Below are positions 5,369-42,122 of a DNA stretch of 64,000 nucleotides, in pieces. The notes under the pieces are model-generated. The model was not told the DNA's origin. It did no database searches and worked only from the letters and a program-made list of their open reading frames with translations. A program made the position numbers and the translations under genes. Source of the stretch: a virus; IMG/VR virus record IMGVR_UViG_3300005099_000065, positions 1-64,000 of that record. The stretch is one strand, 5' to 3'. Numbering within the stretch: position 1 is the first letter of the stretch; each line of letters begins with the position of its first letter.

Positions 5369-7494
5369 GTTTGAACAAATTTTTGTTTGGAGGAGGAATT
5401 AGTGGACCTCTAAAATCGATTGCTAACATACGTTTTGTTCAACCAGGGCAAACAATTCAAGATGTTTTAAATAGTATAGTAGATGCATCACAAACCAATC
5501 CTTATTTTGTAATTGTGCCTCCAACAAGAGAACGTCCTGCATACATTCCTAAAGACCATGTTTATATCTATAATACAAATCCTTGTGACTTTTATGTAGA
5601 TGCCACAAATGGGGACGATAACAATGATGGAACAATAGATGCACCTTTTAAAACAGTTGCAAAAATTAATAGTTTGGGGTTGTTACCAGGAGATAGGGTT
5701 TTGTTTAAGTGTAATGAGGAATGGATGGAGGAATTGACTATTTCGTATAGAGGGACAAAAGAACAACCAATAGTTTTCACTAGTTATGGAGCTGGATATT
5801 TGCCTACTATTACGGGGCTAACAACTACTGATTCAAGTCAATGGGAAAGTTACGATGGGAAATATAGATATCCGTACTCAAGTCCTGCTCCTAACGTGTT
5901 GGTAGAAGATGGTGTTTATATGTTTCAACGCAGCCCTAATTATGACGACCCGATAAACAGAGTGACAAATGCTGGTGATTGGGCAAGAACAGATGGATAT
6001 ATTTACTTTATTCCTACTTCAGACACTCCATCAAATCATGTAATTAGGATTGGACGACTGAATAGACCTGTTTATTTTAATCAAGCTAAATATATTATTT
6101 GGGATGGAATTAATGTGGAAGGTTGTAATCATATTGGGACTTATATTACAGAAATGGCTTGTTTTCTAGTCCAAGATTGTGAACATATCAAAATCAAAAA
6201 TTCACATGTTGCCTATTCTCAATGGTGTGGTTTATCAGTTTTAGGTTCAAAGCATATCAAAATTTTTAATATTAGTGCGAATTTTGTTGATTACAGAGGC
6301 ATAAGCATAGGTGCAGATTGTGAGGATGTTGAAGTAAAAGGCTGTTTTGAAGTAAATATAGGCTATAACGCACATGAAATGTGGGATGAACCTTATATCA
6401 AAGCTGATATGGAAGGAATTGCTGTATCTGCTTGGAGTTGTGATGATAGTAAATATTCTAAAAATCCGACAAAAGTTTATATAAGAGACAATTTTATTGA
6501 AAATTGTGGACATACCCATGCCTATGATTCAGGTAGAGGAAAAGGAATTGTAATTAATGAGGCAAAATTTGACAATGATGTAGAAATTATTATTGAGAAA
6601 AATTTAGTGCGTAAATGTTTTAGTGCAGGTATAAAGGTTGAAAGCACAGGTGGGAATGTAAAAGTGGTAGATAATATAACAGTTGAAAATGGTTGGGGTA
6701 ATAGTGTAGATGTGACAGATAGTTGGAAAAAAATGGGTGGAATAATCGTTCAAGCTAAAGATGGACAAACATTAAATGTCATTATTGCAAACAATTTAAG
6801 TGCTTATAATGAATGTCATAATACTAATGGATATTCTGGTAATTTGGTTATAAGTGCCAATAATGCTACTGTAAATGCTGTTGTCAAAAATAATATTTTG
6901 TCGATTTTTAAAACAGTTAGTAACACACAGTGTAGTTTTAATATAGTTAATCCAAATGGTGGAACAGTAAATCTGACTAGCGATTATAATTGCTTTTGGG
7001 AAGCGTCAGATACAACCGTATGTATCAATTATTTGGGCACAACTTATGATAGAGCGCATGTGAAAGGTTCAAGTAGTGGTTATTGGTCATATGATACAGG
7101 TAATGATAACAACTCGATTGTTTCTGACCCTTGCTTAGTCAAATTAGGAAACGGAAAATTTGCTTTAAGACACGACTCTCCTTGTATTGAAGCAGGAGTT
7201 TATATTGCAAGAATTACTAAGAAACTTAATCCCAATATAGCACCTTCATATTTGGAAATAATTAAGGAAAGGAGAGGCACAGCAACTATTACTTCAGGCA
7301 ATACTTATGTTGATGTAATGCATAATCTGAATGAAACACCAAATATTGAAGACATTGTCATAACACCAACAAACAATCTGGGTTCAGCTACAAAATTCTG
7401 GATTAGTGACGTAACTAACACTACTTTTAGAATAAATATAGATACAGACCCTGGAGCAAGTGGGGCTAGTTTTGTTTGGCAAATAAGGAGGTAA
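5365..7494 (+). CDS. Right-handed beta-helix (pectin-lyase-like) spike/appendage protein, possible depolymerase
   Basis: FYVDATNGDDNNDGTIDAPFKT motif, LLPGDRVLFK, Asn/Ile-rich parallel beta-helix repeats, C-terminal GTATITSGNTYVDVMHNL domain; ATGA overlap at 5365. Confidence 0.75.
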   Translation: MSLNKFLFGGGISGPLKSIANIRFVQPGQTIQDVLNSIVDASQTNPYFVIVPPTRERPAYIPKDHVYIYNTNPCDFYVDATNGDDNNDGTIDAPFKTVAKINSLGLLPGDRVLFKCNEEWMEELTISYRGTKEQPIVFTSYGAGYLPTITGLTTTDSSQWESYDGKYRYPYSSPAPNVLVEDGVYMFQRSPNYDDPINRVTNAGDWARTDGYIYFIPTSDTPSNHVIRIGRLNRPVYFNQAKYIIWDGINVEGCNHIGTYITEMACFLVQDCEHIKIKNSHVAYSQWCGLSVLGSKHIKIFNISANFVDYRGISIGADCEDVEVKGCFEVNIGYNAHEMWDEPYIKADMEGIAVSAWSCDDSKYSKNPTKVYIRDNFIENCGHTHAYDSGRGKGIVINEAKFDNDVEIIIEKNLVRKCFSAGIKVESTGGNVKVVDNITVENGWGNSVDVTDSWKKMGGIIVQAKDGQTLNVIIANNLSAYNECHNTNGYSGNLVISANNATVNAVVKNNILSIFKTVSNTQCSFNIVNPNGGTVNLTSDYNCFWEASDTTVCINYLGTTYDRAHVKGSSSGYWSYDTGNDNNSIVSDPCLVKLGNGKFALRHDSPCIEAGVYIARITKKLNPNIAPSYLEIIKERRGTATITSGNTYVDVMHNLNETPNIEDIVITPTNNLGSATKFWISDVTNTTFRINIDTDPGASGASFVWQIRR

Positions 7495-7496
7495 GA

Positions 7497-8066
7497 ATGA
7501 AAAAATTTTTGTTAATAATTATGCTACTTTTAATACCACTCATTGCTAAAGCTGAAATCCAATCCTTCAAATTCTGGATAGAAAACGACAATCTCAAAGG
7601 AAAAATCGCTACCACAGACAATTTTTTAGCCTATAACATTGGTTTTGACTCTGACAACAATCCTGAAACAGGATGTAGCGCTTGTGGCTATCCAGGGATT
7701 GATTATGAAATTTCTTTTGCTTATCAGGGAGGAAAATCCGACCCTGTGGTCTTATTCTGTGATTATTCAAACTGTTCTTGTAGTTCTTCAGACCCACTGA
7801 ATGAAAAGATAGAATGGAGTTTTGAACAGGATGGAAAAGTATTTAATTTTAGTATTCCATTAGAAACGATTTATAAAAACACATTTAAAATAAATATTTT
7901 TATTTCTTATCTACAAAAAATCATTGTTCCGGGGAATATGTTGGCAGATGACCATGTAATTGATTGCTTAAATTTAGACATAAGATGTGATTTTGATAAA
8001 GATTATGATGTTGATGGTTTGGATTTAACAATTTTCAGTAGTAATTTTGGTAAAAATTTTAGGTGA
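7497..8066 (+). CDS. Secreted protein with signal peptide and C-terminal dockerin/EF-hand-like motif
   Basis: MKKFLLIIMLLLIPLIAKA signal peptide; CDFDKDYDVDGLDLTIFSSNFG at the C-terminus; GGAGG RBS. Confidence 0.65.
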   Translation: MKKFLLIIMLLLIPLIAKAEIQSFKFWIENDNLKGKIATTDNFLAYNIGFDSDNNPETGCSACGYPGIDYEISFAYQGGKSDPVVLFCDYSNCSCSSSDPLNEKIEWSFEQDGKVFNFSIPLETIYKNTFKINIFISYLQKIIVPGNMLADDHVIDCLNLDIRCDFDKDYDVDGLDLTIFSSNFGKNFR

Positions 8067-8278
8067 GGCTTTTCCTTGTTAAAAAAGATAACTGGAGACT
8101 ATATATGGAGTATATTTCCGTGAGAATGTATGGACTTAAAGAAGAGAAAGTTTTAGAGCTTATTACTGAAGGAAGTAAAAAAGATTGTGAAAATACTATA
8201 CTTCTGTTGAAAAAGCACTTCTGCGTGGAGGTGGTAAGAGATGGCAGAACAAATGTTAGTAGGAAAATACATAGTTAA
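8063..8278 (+). CDS. Hypothetical protein
   Basis: ORF coupled to its neighbours. Confidence 0.45.
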   Translation: MRLFLVKKDNWRLYMEYISVRMYGLKEEKVLELITEGSKKDCENTILLLKKHFCVEVVRDGRTNVSRKIHS

Positions 8279-8705
8279 TTATGTTATTACTCAAGAAGGA
8301 CAAATGTATAGAGTAGATGCAGAAGTAGAAATTAGTCGTCAGATTTATAATGGAAATTGGTACTTTCCAGAAAGCCCTGATAATGACACTTTGTTCAATT
8401 ATTTCAAACAATGGATAGCTGGAATTGAAAAAGAATTGGAATACGAAGCAAATCCATTAAACCAAGACTTTTCTGCCGAGCTAGGAGATGAATTGAAAAG
8501 CATCATCATTGAAGCTGTAAAGTATGTAAGAAATTATCCAGATGTGGATGTGCAGGGTTTCAAAGAGTGGTATGACAAAAGATTTCCCATTTCTGTTTTC
8601 CATCCAGAGGCGCTAATGAATTGGTTGTTGAGAAGGTTGAATAAAAAAAGCTTTGATGAAGTAAAGGAGCATTTCATTAAAGCTAAATTTGTAGAACTTG
8701 ATTAG
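8241..8705 (+). CDS. Hypothetical protein
   Basis: GGAGG RBS, 154-aa ORF. Confidence 0.7.
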   Translation: MAEQMLVGKYIVNYVITQEGQMYRVDAEVEISRQIYNGNWYFPESPDNDTLFNYFKQWIAGIEKELEYEANPLNQDFSAELGDELKSIIIEAVKYVRNYPDVDVQGFKEWYDKRFPISVFHPEALMNWLLRRLNKKSFDEVKEHFIKAKFVELD

Positions 8706-8719
8706 ATAAGGAGGGAAAT

Positions 8720-8992
8720 ATGTTTGCTGATAAAGAACAAAATAAGCTACTTCTGAAGTATTTAAAAGAACTCTTTAAACCTGAAAGAATAAAGAATATT
8801 GATGTTGACTTTGTTGAAGGCGCCGATGATTTATTGCACATAAAGTTTGAATTTGATAATGGCGTTATTTTTGAGATAGAACAAGAAGAATATTGTGGCG
8901 AGACTGAACTTTGGATTCCAAAAAAGGAATTAATTGAGCGAGGGATTATAAGTGAAGAAGAATACGGAAAGGAGGGAATGCTTTATTTGTAA
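8720..8992 (+). CDS. Hypothetical acidic protein
   Basis: GGAGG RBS, 90-aa ORF. Confidence 0.65.
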   Translation: MFADKEQNKLLLKYLKELFKPERIKNIDVDFVEGADDLLHIKFEFDNGVIFEIEQEEYCGETELWIPKKELIERGIISEEEYGKEGMLYL

Positions 8993-8995
8993 AAG

Positions 8996-10543
8996 ATGCC
9001 GGTGCACAAATACATAGACCCAACTTGAACATATGACGGAGATGGGAGTTCCCCATCGTGTGCATCTTCTGATGGTGGAGCAGGGGCTTATAATTCTATT
9101 GCTTCTTTTCTTACAAATGCCAGTGATGGATGGTATGGTTGGGTAAGAAGAAATAATAACGATATCTCTATTAGTAGCCAACTCGCTCCATCGAACAACT
9201 GTGTCATAGGAAATCCTGCTAGACTTATAGGTTGGCCATACTATGAACAAGTTTCAGGCACAGTAGATGGGGCTATCAGTGGAAAGGAGAAGTTTGGATT
9301 TTATGATGCGGAACTTACAGCTACGGATACAGGACATTATTGCAGCGCAGAAATAGAATTTACAGGTGGAGCTAATTCAGGGTTAAAAAGAAAAGTTATA
9401 TTCTATCAGTATGACAGTGAAAATAGCAGAGGAGAGGTTTATGTATTTCCTGACCTGCCAAATAACATACAGGCAGGAGATACCTATACAATTACTTTAA
9501 AAACAGAACTTTACGATGAAAGACCACAAGCTGGAATTGATGCTGGTTGGGATGATGATAATTATATAAGACCCGTGTTGGATGGTGGTGGCGGAAGTTT
9601 TAATTTATTTTACTGGCAAAGATTCGGATGGCATTGTTATAATTTTGTTTTGAAGAATGTAGCTTCTGGCTACCGTTTGTTTTATAGAACACCAACTTTA
9701 GGCAAAAATCTGATTTTTTGCGACACTGCTGAGGATTGTATCTATGGAGAGCAAAAATTTATGGACAGACTTGAAGATTGCTATGCTTATGGCTTTGGCA
9801 GGTATTTCTTGAATTCTTGTGATTTAGGCTGTCTGGAAAACGTCCACGTGCAAGGAACAGAAGGAGCTGATAGATATGCATTACGATTTTCACATCCAAA
9901 AGTACTAAAGGCTTGCAGTTTTGGTAAAGTGATTCCTTTAACGACACTTTTTTATGCCATGTTAAGCCCTAAAATACAATGTGAGCAGATAGATTATGAT
10001 TTAACTGAAAGTATTGTTAATTGGAGTACAAATGCTTATCCAAGCCAGTACCACTATATCTCTTTTAGCGGATATAATGGAAACAAGGATAAATTCCGCC
10101 AGTATTATTACAATGGAGAAATCTACAACGTAGATGAAGATGCCGCAATTGACCCTCCTAGTGGGGCTACGACATATATTAAGATTGTACCTAATAGTCG
10201 GTGCAATTCACTATATCCTCTTGTTCACAAAGAAGAGCGTTATCAATCGGGGACATCCAAAACATATACTTGGAAGGTTTTAATATGGGGATATTCCAGT
10301 TTCGACGTAACAGACGTTGAAGTAGAGGCTTGGTATTTAGAAGAATCAACGGGTATTAAACGTAAATATAGCACAGCAAACCTTTCTACTGCTACTATCT
10401 CTGACGAAACAAATCAAGTTTGGAATGATTTGTCTATCACTATTTCTCCAGGGCAAGCAGGAATGGTGTATTTTCAGATTAAGCTTAAAAAATATGAATT
10501 AGGAGCATTTATTGCATTAGACCCAAAACCTAGTGTGAGTTAG
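8996..10543 (+). CDS. Putative virion appendage protein of 515 codons with one in-frame UGA at codon 11 (candidate selenocysteine); the ORF track shows only 9575-10543
   Basis: Manual translation gives ATG 8996 MPVHKYIDPT-TGA(9026-9028)-TYDGDGSSPSCASSDGGAGAYNS..., then 182 open codons with no ATG/GTG/TTG until GTG 9575, in the same frame. Contains an IEFTGGANSGLKRKV...LPNNIQAGDTYTI segment typical of phage virion proteins. Confidence 0.7.
9029..9060 (+). promoter_or_regulatory. Bacterial SECIS-like hairpin
   Basis: Stem GATGGG (9041-9046) / CCCATC (9052-9057) with loop AGTTC; the stem starts 12 nt and the loop 18 nt after the UGA, with G at loop position 2. Confidence 0.45.
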
Positions 10544-10551
10544 GAGATAAC

Positions 10552-11745
10552 ATGGCTTATATTGATTATACATTAGCATGGGGAAGGCTTATAAGGCAGG
10601 ATGAAGAGCCGTCTGATGGGTATAGTTTGGTTTGGGGAGAGGTGAAGACTTATTATATTGTTACTGCTGGCCAAGTCTATGATGAAATTTGCGGCGATGT
10701 TTTCAATGCTGAATTGACTTCTGGATCCCAGATTGAGATAAAAGCCGGGGTGCAGGAGGTAATGAAACCGAGTGATTTAGGCAGTGGTCCTTTGACTTCT
10801 CATCATCGAGCAATAAGCGATTTTTTATTGAGAGACCAAAGTAAGCTACTTTTGCTTTTAGACCTAGCTAGCAAAGGTTTTCTTAAACACGAAATTGAAG
10901 GTCAATGTTTCCTCACTTTGAGCCAGGAAAATTCCGAGTTTGTTAAAGTTAGCTCATCCAATATGGTCATGTTGTCTATCGACAACATTTTGAAAAGTGC
11001 ACTAAAAGTCTTAAGTTTTTCCCAAACATTGAATTACATAGATGGGTCTATCGCAAACACGTTGAAGATGTTGGACAATATAGGAGCTTACTCAGTCTTG
11101 CTTGAAGAAATATTGAATAAGTTTGGGATGTTAGAGTCCAAAAACATTGCTCTTGAATTTGTGAAACAAGCCAGATCGATCTTAAATAATATATCTTTTT
11201 CCAACTATTTGAGTTACATAGATGTGGATATTTCTTCAATAGTGGTTTTGGCAGAAAGGAAACTGAGCTATTTAGAGCAGGTTTTGCAATCTTATAGTTT
11301 GTTGAAGTTAGACGAAACAGCTTCAGTGAATTTCAATATTTTGCAAAGTATTATGGAAATGATTTCCTTTTTTACCTTTGTCAAATTTTTTAATCTTTTG
11401 GATGCCTTTTTTGCTGAAAAATTTGGTGCTAAGTCTGAAAGCCAATTGCATCCAATAATAAGACCAAAGACGATGGGTCTTTTGGTGGAGGAAGAAAAAA
11501 TCAGCGGAAGGTTTGAAATATCATCGCAATTGGGTCAAGCCATTTCATTTTTGGAGAAAAATGGGATTAATTTGGTTTTGGCTCTAGAAATAATAGCTCG
11601 CTCTTATTACTTAAGCATCTTATCCTATGCTGTTACAGAACTAGGAGTGGAGGAATTTGATTTCACAATCAAAGTGAGAGACAGAATCTGTGAAGTGAAA
11701 GTGTCTAAAAATGAATTGACAGTGAAAGTGTCTAGAGAGCAATGA
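10552..11745 (+). CDS. Putative virion structural/fibre-associated protein
   Basis: 397-aa ORF with RBS inside the appendage module. Confidence 0.5.
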   Translation: MAYIDYTLAWGRLIRQDEEPSDGYSLVWGEVKTYYIVTAGQVYDEICGDVFNAELTSGSQIEIKAGVQEVMKPSDLGSGPLTSHHRAISDFLLRDQSKLLLLLDLASKGFLKHEIEGQCFLTLSQENSEFVKVSSSNMVMLSIDNILKSALKVLSFSQTLNYIDGSIANTLKMLDNIGAYSVLLEEILNKFGMLESKNIALEFVKQARSILNNISFSNYLSYIDVDISSIVVLAERKLSYLEQVLQSYSLLKLDETASVNFNILQSIMEMISFFTFVKFFNLLDAFFAEKFGAKSESQLHPIIRPKTMGLLVEEEKISGRFEISSQLGQAISFLEKNGINLVLALEIIARSYYLSILSYAVTELGVEEFDFTIKVRDRICEVKVSKNELTVKVSREQ

Positions 11746-11781
11746 TTTATAATATTACTAAGAGATTTGAAGGAGGAAAAA

Positions 11782-12306
11782 ATGAACAAAAAAGCTTTTG
11801 GCGTAGGAGGCGCTTTCACTGTTTGCATATATAGAAAAAAGGGCGAAAATTTGGATTTAGTTGCTGAATCTGAATTTCATAATCTTTATCCAAGTGAAGG
11901 GCTGGATTATATATTATCTTCAATTTTCAAAGGTCATACACCGAGCGATCCTCTTTATGTAGGTTTGTTGGGAGGTACTGTAACTCCTTCTCCCAGCATG
12001 GATTGGAAAATGGCAAACCAGGGATCTTTGTGGGATGAATTCACATCCTATTCAGAGGGTACTAGACAAGAGTTTGTTGATGGACCTATCGATTCAGCTC
12101 ACCAAATATCTAACACAGATAACAAAGCCCAATTCACCATAACTGGTGCTGGAACAATATATGGAGCATTTTTGTGTACAGATCCTACGTTGGATGGCAC
12201 TATGGGTACTCTCGTTTGCATTGGTACTTTTGTGGGGACGGCTAGAGTAGTACAACCAGACGACATAGTTAGAGTGACTTACACTGTTGCAGGAACTAAT
12301 GCTTAA
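11782..12306 (+). CDS. Virion structural protein (fibre/collar-associated family)
   Basis: HNL..SEGLDYIL...YVGL...ISNTDNKAQFTI...IYGAFL...DIVRVTYTV pattern; 8 Gly-Thr in 175 aa; GGAGG RBS. Confidence 0.6.
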   Translation: MNKKAFGVGGAFTVCIYRKKGENLDLVAESEFHNLYPSEGLDYILSSIFKGHTPSDPLYVGLLGGTVTPSPSMDWKMANQGSLWDEFTSYSEGTRQEFVDGPIDSAHQISNTDNKAQFTITGAGTIYGAFLCTDPTLDGTMGTLVCIGTFVGTARVVQPDDIVRVTYTVAGTNA

Positions 12307-12308
12307 AG

Positions 12309-12608
12309 ATGGGAAAGACTTATTTGGGTATAAAACAACCATATGAAACTTATAGAATCAAAATAGATCTTACTGAGTTTTTGGGACAGGAATCTTTGGG
12401 AGGATATAAAGTTTCAATACATGATTTGAAAGGAACTGAAATACATTCGATGCTGGAGGATGCTACTTATTCCTCAGGAACATTGGTGTTGACGATTGGA
12501 GGTGGAAAAGACGGTCGCTCTTACAAAATCACTGTTAAAGGTTACACAAGCTCTTCTCCTGCTAGAAAATTTGAAGAGGATATATTTTTAACAGTAAAAG
12601 ACTATTGA
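12309..12608 (+). CDS. Fibre-tail adaptor-like protein
   Basis: KQPYE...IDLTEFL...IGGGKDGRSYKITV...RKFEEDIFLTV pattern. Confidence 0.55.
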   Translation: MGKTYLGIKQPYETYRIKIDLTEFLGQESLGGYKVSIHDLKGTEIHSMLEDATYSSGTLVLTIGGGKDGRSYKITVKGYTSSSPARKFEEDIFLTVKDY

Positions 12609-22355: not shown

Positions 22356-23420
22356 ATGCCTTTAGGTTTCAAAGGTTATTTGATGATTGCTGAAGAAGGA
22401 ACCACAGTTGCTGGTGGAAATGTGTGGGGTAAGGAAAGCGTGGATTGGTTGAGTGCTTTGTATTTTGAAAGCGAGTCACTAGCACCAGCACCAGACATAT
22501 TCTTTTCCACTGAATTGGGTGGCAGAAACGCTGAAGGAGACAGAGCATTTCGTCGTTCTCGCAAACGTGGAGACAAATGCGAAGGAGCTATCACCATCAC
22601 AGCATATCCAGAAGGTGGTGGAGATATGAGCGGATTAGCCTTATTGCTCAAACATGCCACAGCTGGTGTGACTAGTGGAACACTAATTGGAACAGCACAA
22701 GGACTGTCAGATGATTATTATCTCCACACATTCATTCCCAAAGACGAAATCGACAATCTTTGGAATGGTTCCACATATCGAGTTTACGGATTGACTGTTC
22801 ACATTGGTCGTGAAGATGATAGTGGGTCTTTGAGAAACTATCCCCATCTGGGGTGCAGAATCAGAAACATCACTTTCAGTTGTGCTGCTGGCGAGGAACT
22901 GAAATGCTCTGTGGAATTTGTAGGCAGAAAGCTAGGAGACACGGGCACAGCCAAAACACCCAGTTATTCAGGATTGTCCCCTTGGACATTTGATGAGGCA
23001 AGTGTGACAGTGGATGGTAATACTAGACAAATTGATTCCTTTGAAATCACAATCACCAATCCGATGGTGGAAGCTCACACATTGGGCACTAATGTCTTAG
23101 GAAGAGTCAGATTCAGTGGAGCCAGAACTGTAACAGGAAACATCACAGCACCATTTGAGGGATGGGTGAAAGACTTGTTCGACAAATGGCGCAACAACCA
23201 AAGCGCATCTCTCAATATTAAATTCACCAAAGGTACATATTGGACAATTGAGTTTGATTTGCCTAAAGTGATTTTCACTGGTGCTCCACCCAGCATTGGA
23301 GGTCCCGAAGAACTGGTAGTCACTATGCCATTCCAAGCGCTGTGGGACGAAAGCTCAGGATATGATATTCGAATCAAACTCAGCAACAGAGATGAAAAGG
23401 TAGGTTATGACATTAGCTAA
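22356..23420 (+). CDS. Major tail tube protein
   Basis: FSCAAGEELKCSVEFVG, RTVTGNIT, IEFDLPKVIFTG..PSIGGPEELVVTMPFQA; directly upstream of the chaperones and tape measure. Confidence 0.8.
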   Translation: MPLGFKGYLMIAEEGTTVAGGNVWGKESVDWLSALYFESESLAPAPDIFFSTELGGRNAEGDRAFRRSRKRGDKCEGAITITAYPEGGGDMSGLALLLKHATAGVTSGTLIGTAQGLSDDYYLHTFIPKDEIDNLWNGSTYRVYGLTVHIGREDDSGSLRNYPHLGCRIRNITFSCAAGEELKCSVEFVGRKLGDTGTAKTPSYSGLSPWTFDEASVTVDGNTRQIDSFEITITNPMVEAHTLGTNVLGRVRFSGARTVTGNITAPFEGWVKDLFDKWRNNQSASLNIKFTKGTYWTIEFDLPKVIFTGAPPSIGGPEELVVTMPFQALWDESSGYDIRIKLSNRDEKVGYDIS

Positions 23421-29987: not shown

Positions 29988-30557
29988 ATGGCAACCATAA
30001 ATTTTTTGGTGGAATGGGAAACAGCATGGGAACCACCTCAAGGACCCAAGCTATTGTCCAGAGTGTTAACCAACTTGGACAAGAGGATCTTCACTTCGGG
30101 TTTTTTGGACAGATTTTGGAACAAAGTGGCAAGGAACATTGGCAGAGCAGTGGCTGAGAAATTTGAAACCAAACCAGGTTGGCCTCCATTGAAACCTCGT
30201 TACAGAAAATGGAAAGAGTCAGCTGTGGCTCATGGATGGAAAGTGAAAGTGGGAGTTTTCGGCAAAAAGGTGGCAAAATTCACAGAAATGGGCAAACTGA
30301 CAGGAATCATGTATGAATCGGCTACTCGCAAAAGACGTTGGGCGAACATTTTTGAAATCCGAGACGAACCTCACTTTCGCAAAGCCCATTTCAAATATGC
30401 CATCGACTTAACCAAACTTCCTTATGCTCGCAAATTTGACACCATTCGACCCTTCTTTTACCTCACGGCTGAAGAAGCAAACAAAGTGATGAAAAATCTG
30501 CATTTGATTTGCTGGAGAGAAATGAGAAAAGTGATAAAACAACAAATGGGGGTATGA
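29988..30557 (+). CDS. Virion morphogenesis / tail completion protein (Mu gpG / P2 S-like)
   Basis: WPPLKPRYRKWK...KLTG...YARKF..IRPFF. Confidence 0.65.
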   Translation: MATINFLVEWETAWEPPQGPKLLSRVLTNLDKRIFTSGFLDRFWNKVARNIGRAVAEKFETKPGWPPLKPRYRKWKESAVAHGWKVKVGVFGKKVAKFTEMGKLTGIMYESATRKRRWANIFEIRDEPHFRKAHFKYAIDLTKLPYARKFDTIRPFFYLTAEEANKVMKNLHLICWREMRKVIKQQMGV

Positions 30558-41786: not shown

Positions 41787-42122
41787 TTATTTTTTCCAAC
41801 CAGCAATAGCTGAATTTCTAAATTGTTTAGCAGCTTCCACCACTTCAGGATGAGGATGTTCAAAACTCACTCCTATGTATTCATCTGACGTCCATTTGAC
41901 CACACCCTTCAACACGTGAACGCTATTCAATATCAAATGAACCTCTATGGAATCTCCTTTTTTGAAATTGTGTCCATCTTTTTCTACCAAACACCCTCGC
42001 TCACTGATGTTCAGCATCCGAGCTGGCTCAGCAGGCAAGGTGGTCTCAAGCAAACCAAAACTTTTTTTGATATAAGCTAAATTCCAAGTAAGGAGACGAG
42101 GGCTTTTCCTCTTTTCCTCCAT
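41787..42122 (-). CDS. Stand-alone PilZ-domain protein
   Basis: KRKSPR (RxxxR) and NISERG (D/NxSxxG) c-di-GMP-binding motifs, GVVKW, IGVSF. Confidence 0.8.
   Translation of the reverse strand: MEEKRKSPRLLTWNLAYIKKSFGLLETTLPAEPARMLNISERGCLVEKDGHNFKKGDSIEVHLILNSVHVLKGVVKWTSDEYIGVSFEHPHPEVVEAAKQFRNSAIAGWKK

Follow-up and report, generated by a model that had tools for sequence, protein, structure and literature searches.

A phage gene with an in-frame UGA most likely encodes a selenoprotein

Does a UGA codon that follows only ten sense codons of a phage gene terminate translation, or is it read as selenocysteine (Sec) by the machinery of the bacterial host? This question is raised by the gene at 8996-10543 of the window, that is, of the whole 64,000-nucleotide stretch that was analysed. 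The virus record is 79,661 bp (79.7 kb) long and the window is its first 64 kb. The ends of the record overlap by about 103 nt, so that it is probably, by its sequence, a complete circular assembly of a tailed phage; it carries a major capsid gene (PHROG), terminase, Pol A and PilZ. The first-pass annotation had put the gene forward as a candidate for Sec insertion and had proposed to look for Cys at the aligned position in homologues, for a fit to the bacterial SECIS (bSECIS) model, for the selA, selB and selC genes in the host and for read support of the TGA itself. The features concerned are the following.

8996..10543, plus strand: the complete gene, which has 515 codons when UGA11 is read through, as defined by the ORF, the homologues and the structure model
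9026..9028, plus strand: in-frame TGA, codon 11, predicted selenocysteine; TGT or TGC (Cys) in the closest homologues
9059..9061, plus strand: TGT codon of Cys22, the putative bridging partner of residue 11 according to the homologue alignment

Re-reading of the ORF bore out the initial description. ATG 8996 begins 3 nt past the preceding stop (TAA 8990-8992), and the single TGA at codon 11 (9026-9028) is the sole in-frame stop between this ATG and the TAG at 10541-10543. It is followed by 182 open codons (codons 12-193), the next in-frame ATG, GTG or TTG being the GTG at 9575 (codon 194), and the Cys seen downstream of the UGA is Cys22 (TGT, 9059-9061). It had also been stated that TGA is a normal stop elsewhere and that recoding is not genome-wide. 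This holds, as TGA is the commonest stop among the long ORFs of the genome and closes 22 of 44. A search of the whole genome for TGA codons that precede a long open stretch devoid of starts gave 9026 as the sole credible readthrough site and no other credible in-frame UGA candidate. Genome-wide reassignment of UGA (tables 4/25) was rejected on these two grounds, and the recoding is thus site-specific. Gene callers cut every UGA allele to a fragment of 322-382 aa, so genes of this kind are systematically mis-annotated.

A trivial explanation for such a codon would be a sequencing or assembly error. The same TGA was found in eight other contigs (L003, L004, L006, L007, L075, L091, L092 and L097), which derive from six other assemblies (NCBI, JGI, ENA) and in which it is flanked by different synonymous changes; an error is effectively refuted and its probability is negligible. 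The database homologues of these contigs are N-terminally truncated and the same TGA is visible in their DNA. Counting that of the window there are six distinct UGA alleles, each with 501-512 open codons after the UGA, and their C-terminal parts are just 49-61% identical.

A more serious alternative is that a recent nonsense mutation sits on a 5' cassette spread by recombination, and that the gene is not needed or yields no more than the 322-aa C-terminal part that starts at GTG 9575. The change from TGY to TGA needs a single base, the UGA has one origin, the gene is mosaic and codons 1-34 differ by just 0-7 nt among alleles, all of which would agree with such a history. However, the segregating sites in codons 1-34 comprise 8 synonymous and 0 replacement changes (P=8e-6, about 1e-5), which the cassette gained on both sides of the UGA, two of them preceding it (codons 2 and 3). 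None of the six alleles has a second stop or a frameshift over about 500 codons. The first downstream start lies at codon 136, 160 or 194 depending on the allele, which means that there is no conserved restart, and in the structure model the beta-helix has its first strand at residues 3-7. The recurrence of the TGA and the substitution patterns rule out a sequencing error and speak strongly against a dead allele, and the nonsense mutation is very unlikely. The five alleles other than that of the window show 16 synonymous against 4 replacement changes in codons 1-86 (P=1e-7). Codons 81-193 retain 90-98% amino-acid identity among alleles at a pS of about 0.35-0.65; these codons require readthrough in the window, since no internal start reaches them. 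The N-terminal part is, judged from these substitution patterns, a genuine conserved coding region, and the UGA is a real, inherited codon with selection at the protein level on either side of it. The doubt raised at the outset about the genuineness of the TGA is largely removed by its recurrence in independent assemblies under purifying selection.

The history of the codon can be read from trees of the two ends of the gene. In the N-terminal tree the UGA is confined to one clade (support 96/94), which indicates a single origin. In the C-terminal tree L005, which is a Cys allele, clusters with the window and L003 (100/100). This conflict indicates that one and the same body has received Sec-type and Cys-type 5' cassettes by exchange. 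The UGA alleles coexist with close Cys alleles whose bodies are near-identical (L005/P0158); Sec is therefore dispensable for the protein family and its advantage is not absolute. The gain of Sec from Cys is apparently recent, as far as these trees suggest.

Apart from its own shortened gene call, 35 homologues of the read-through protein were found; 34 are 37-60% identical to it, and in most cases the match extends over the full length. As the first-pass annotation would have it for a Sec codon, residue 11 is Cys in the 11 closest full-length stop-free homologues (47-58% identity). Cys22 is present in all 11 of these and in none of the homologues that have Ala, Gln or Ser at 11, which carry Gln or a gap at 22. 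From this perfect co-occurrence of Cys11 and Cys22 we infer a Sec11-Cys22 bond, probably a structural Se-S bond. Four Cys-type homologues (P0005, P0008, P0009 and P0014) have a signal-peptide-like N-terminal extension, and at one further locus (L001:5932-7506) the 163-aa upstream partner also has one. The module thus seems to occur in exported and non-exported forms, the extensions pointing to export in those lineages. No homologue was found in seven Desulfofervidales genomes, so there is no sign of a gene captured from the host. Pfam, PHROGs and NCBIfam hold no family for the protein, and the DNA pattern around the UGA had no match in the viral contig database; the shorter homologues yielded nothing either.

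Insertion of Sec in bacteria depends on a hairpin close to the UGA, and the following element was considered.

9041..9057, plus strand: candidate bacterial SECIS core, 6-bp stem GAUGGG/CCCAUC, loop AGUUC with G2-U3

The geometry first described was found to be correct. The 6-bp stem (arms 9041-9046 and 9052-9057) starts 12 nt past the UGA and the loop AGUUC (9047-9051) starts 18 nt past it, with G at loop position 2. The published bSECIS consensus allows a loop of 3-9 nt, a stem of 4-16 bp, a distance of 16-37 nt from the UGA and an MFE of -7.5 or lower, with G in loop position 1-2 and then G/U (PMC13188914). In our own implementation, the fit for which the first-pass annotation had asked was obtained for 5 of 5 distinct UGA 5' ends (loop 5, stem 6-8, G2-U3, 18 nt, -11.5 to -14.5 kcal/mol) and for 0 of 19 non-UGA alleles. 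It should be noted that the 5/5 match represents one evolutionary event with a chance rate of 5-8%, because the UGA has a single origin; random TGA triplets of this genome pass the model in 4.6% (strict) to 8.4% of cases. The hairpin alone is no more stable than shuffled sequences (z -0.9 to -1.25). In view of this z near -1 and of the random pass rate, the case rests on comparative evidence and not on the hairpin itself.

The hairpin core is invariant in all UGA alleles, the stem being lengthened to 8 bp in L006 and L075. Codons 18-19 are AGT TCC in the UGA clade; the Cys alleles have ACA, ACG or ACT followed by AGC or AGT, or other codons. These changes, including a switch of Ser codon box, place G-U in the loop. 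None of the eight synonymous changes falls within codons 14-20. As the stem is invariant among UGA alleles no compensatory changes were seen, and covariation was not above that of shuffles. Two Cys alleles share the 6-bp stem with a different loop, the stem being kept there because the D-G-x-S-P-S codons favour it. Within 50 nt and at 37 C the hairpin is the dominant structure, with a pair probability of 0.87-1.0. In longer contexts downstream pairing beats the hairpin in L003/L004 and at 55 C, more than it does for host SECIS elements. The 3' arm of the SECIS (window 9049-9057) can instead pair with 9071-9081 in codons 26-28 (GAUGGUGGA), occluding the SECIS; this alternative pairing, dominant in the long contexts of L003/L004, could tune readthrough. 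In host selD, mvhD and fdhA a short hairpin with an NGGA/NGGC loop follows the UGA at 19-22 nt; the spacing of the phage hairpin is similar, whereas its loop is AGUUC (GU). No SECIS hit was obtained in Rfam, as is expected since bacterial SECIS elements are poorly modelled there.

The phage OmcS-like multiheme cytochrome has its best named matches in Ca. Desulfofervidus; it is 52-60% identical to Desulfofervidus-type proteins and a relative with 75% identity lies on a 3-kb contig (P0039). The gene, for a secreted multiheme cytochrome c, is located at G000:C1:70105-71202 (L034:8105-9202), beyond the window. Comparison of the phage DNA with seven Desulfofervidales genomes gave a cluster of short matches in one contig, G007:C44, where they fall in a type I-B CRISPR array with 114 repeats. 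The array holds at least 14 spacers against the phage, with 2-9 mismatches each and in nearly all cases a TTA/TTG PAM; in the shuffled-DNA control the best match had 31% mismatch. The best protospacer is given here, and others lie at 30256, 19418, 1938, 1627, 16528 and further positions.

22537..22573, minus strand: best protospacer of the G007 array, 2 mismatches in 37 nt, TTG PAM

The mismatches imply that the spacers were acquired from relatives of this phage. In NCBI the proteins of the array contig and the SelB of G007 carry the label Ca. Desulfofervidus auxilii. The imperfect spacers thus point to Ca. Desulfofervidus as the host of the phage. This organism is the sulfate-reducing bacterial partner in thermophilic anaerobic oxidation of methane and alkanes. 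A 31-nt match between 9135-9166 and G007:C8 lies outside the CRISPR arrays and was treated as chance. An archaeal host was rejected, as the phage encodes PilZ and Pol A, its OmcS-like cytochrome is closest to Desulfofervidus and a Desulfofervidus array targets it. Some contigs of the phage family have been assigned to archaeal MAGs (Hodarchaeales, Thorarchaeota, uncultured archaeon): L003 (GCA_054387795.1), P0158 (RLI51546.1) and L033. These bins probably contain mis-binned phage contigs. The PilZ-domain protein (window 41787-42122, minus strand; PF07238, E 2e-8) is stand-alone and a possible c-di-GMP sensor. The window at 7476-8214, a 196-aa secreted gene with a dockerin-like end and its downstream DNA, is 78% identical to G007:C5:28476-29191, and this region is adjoined by further matches to the phage methylase; the match suggests recent exchange with a host region or a prophage.

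The machinery expected of a host in the first-pass annotation is complete in the CRISPR-linked genome. G007 encodes selA, selB, a selD with an in-frame TGA and a tRNA-Sec (TCA; anticodon UCA), the product of selC. Among the Desulfofervidales genomes SelA was found in 7/7, selB in 6/6 tested and a Sec-containing selD in 5/5 tested.

The same genomes bring up another way of decoding the UGA. UGA11 might be read as Cys (or Trp), either by an opal suppressor of the SelC* tRNA-Cys(UCA)/SelB* type or by low-level near-cognate misreading that suffices for a low-copy particle protein. The ancestral residue at position 11 is Cys, and in Desulfococcus biacutus SelC*/SelB* can put Cys at the opal codon UGA, SelC*(UCA) having been shown to do so in E. 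coli (PMC5389517). SelC*-type tRNAs and a second selB exist also in the order of the host: long-arm tRNA-Cys genes of this type were found in four Desulfofervidales genomes (G001:C15:3794-5833, G005:C36 (L098), G006:C74 (L099) and G004:C1:2167631-2167723), in G001, G005 and G006 directly upstream of the second selB. However, unlike in the D. biacutus system, the anticodon is GCA and not UCA in all four that were examined (G001, G004, G005, G006), and these tRNAs are consequently no opal suppressors. The spacer-donor genome G007, which is incomplete, yielded no 3' motif of the G001/G005/G006 type and has one selB, and no tRNA gene was found in the phage genome. Readthrough at UGA-A would moreover not account for the SECIS-shaped changes of the loop, which are confined to the UGA clade. 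Reading as Cys or Trp is on balance unlikely. With a relaxed threshold ARAGORN also reported a 'tRNA-Stop (tta)' inside the 3' part of the second selB in G005 and G006, which is probably a known SelB-associated RNA structure or an artefact.

What kind of protein would carry this residue? An AlphaFold2 model built with 28 homologues and a Trp placeholder at position 11 (pLDDT 88.5, pTM 0.85) is a right-handed beta-helix of the pectate-lyase/tailspike type, with an inserted beta domain at about 80-170 and a C-terminal beta-sandwich at about 390-515. Its best structural matches, among right-handed beta-helix lyases/hydrolases and tailspikes, are BT_1002 (5MQP; Z 20.8), Pel9A (1RU4; Z 19.1) and the tailspike of cyanophage Pam1 (7EEA; Z 18.3), also with Foldseek, over about 240 aligned residues at an rmsd of 2.5-3.2 and 7-12% identity; weak CBM-like matches are probably to the C-terminal part. 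Residue 11 is in a loop between the first strand (3-7) and a capping helix (35-41), outside any recognisable catalytic motif. Within the late operon the gene falls between that for the capsid and that for a gp77-like fibre-tail adaptor, and it has these neighbours.

8241..8705, plus strand: 154-aa gene, upstream; conserved partner in related and in more distant phages
8720..8992, plus strand: 90-aa gene, read in the frame of ATG 8996 and stopping 3 nt short of it
10552..12608, plus strand: downstream conserved module of a 397-aa protein, a 174-aa protein (phrog_8123) and the gp77-like fibre-tail adaptor (PF23148)

The order of the 154-aa gene, the gene under study, a gene for about 397 aa, the 174-aa gene and the gp77-like gene is repeated in related contigs and also in a different phage that bears an integrase. 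Its position between the major capsid and adaptor genes, together with the tailspike-like fold, suggests a location on the virion. By model and gene position the protein is most likely a particle-borne spike or fibre that binds glycan. It might instead act at the host surface, by analogy with the 'nosD-like' viral beta-helix proteins of alkane-oxidizing enrichments, for which such a role has been proposed (PMC13452462). There is no canonical Shine-Dalgarno sequence at the usual spacing before ATG 8996, and it is thus likely, from the arrangement of the two genes, that translation is coupled to that of the 90-aa gene. In L003 (2045-2203) this upstream gene is shortened to 52 aa by an in-frame internal deletion and the UGA gene is intact.

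The data taken together agree with the reading first proposed, as the Cys position, the selected TGA, the bSECIS fit and a Sec-competent linked host all support it. It is very probable that host SelB inserts selenocysteine at UGA11, the identity of the residue being deduced from this combination, and the gene is most likely that of a phage selenoprotein. In the Ca. Desulfofervidus host the protein would be made as a 515-aa tailspike-like beta-helix. By the established scheme of bacterial Sec decoding, SelB-GTP-Sec-tRNA(UCA) would bind the hairpin at 9041-9057 and deliver Sec at UGA11 in competition with release factor 2, failure giving a 10-residue peptide and no protein. Because of this competition with termination, the yield would depend on the selenium supply. 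Sec11 would replace an ancestral Cys paired with Cys22, and the Sec11-Cys22 bond would close a short acidic/Gly loop where the beta-helix is capped at its N-terminal end. A Se-S bond forms more readily than a disulfide and better resists reduction. It may be speculated that such a bond would suit a particle protein folded in the cytoplasm in a hot, sulfidic and reducing setting; another speculative use is that the UGA merely sets a low stoichiometry. The complete scenario is a particle-associated beta-helix protein in which the phage evolved a Sec codon and a SECIS from a Cys codon, with a structural Se-S bond, selenium-dependent formation of complete particles, and Sec and Cys 5' cassettes recombining within one population that infects Ca. 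Desulfofervidus. To this scenario as a whole we give moderate confidence. The system is unusually testable: CRISPR links it to a host genus that possesses the complete machinery and is maintained in enrichment cultures. Viruses have already been purified from Ca. Desulfofervidus-containing enrichment cultures (PMC13452462). The Cys alleles on near-identical bodies provide a natural control for the worth of Sec outside catalysis.

Decoding of Sec as such is known; the open-access literature searched had no example of a phage that employs it for a non-redox beta-helix protein. In that literature no published phage-encoded selenoprotein was found, the matches being papers on eukaryotic viruses. 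A 2026 review of prokaryotic selenoproteins mentions neither phage nor virus; the prokaryotic selenoproteins so far catalogued are cellular and mostly redox or metal-binding, and no such beta-helix family stands among the rows examined of its 119-family catalogue (PMC13188914). Unlike these proteins, the present one is fibre- or spike-like and no redox enzyme or metal binder, and its motif is U-x10-C and not UxxC/CxxU. Like the bacterial SECIS/SelB genes (the prototype fdhF of E. coli and the selD, mvhD and fdhA of the host), it has its UGA at a Cys position, a hairpin with G at loop position 2 starting 18 nt after the UGA, and SelA, SelB, SelC and SelD in the organism; unlike them, it is phage-encoded and would borrow the host machinery. 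It shares its fold (Z 18-21) and the C-terminal beta-sandwich with the Pam1 tailspike, BT_1002 and Pel9A and is also placed among structural genes; in these and in the 'nosD-like' proteins no Sec is reported, and it differs from its structural matches by its low identity and by belonging to no database family. Selenoproteins of eukaryotic viruses are known from molluscum contagiosum (GPx1) and fowlpox (GPx4) (PMC8310308), and here too one viral gene depends on Sec decoding by the host. Those are, in contrast, captured host antioxidant enzymes with a eukaryotic SECIS, whereas the gene studied here appears to be phage-native, with a bacterial SECIS and a Sec that arose from Cys within a phage family. 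It would thus extend Sec recoding to a phage-native, probably structural protein.
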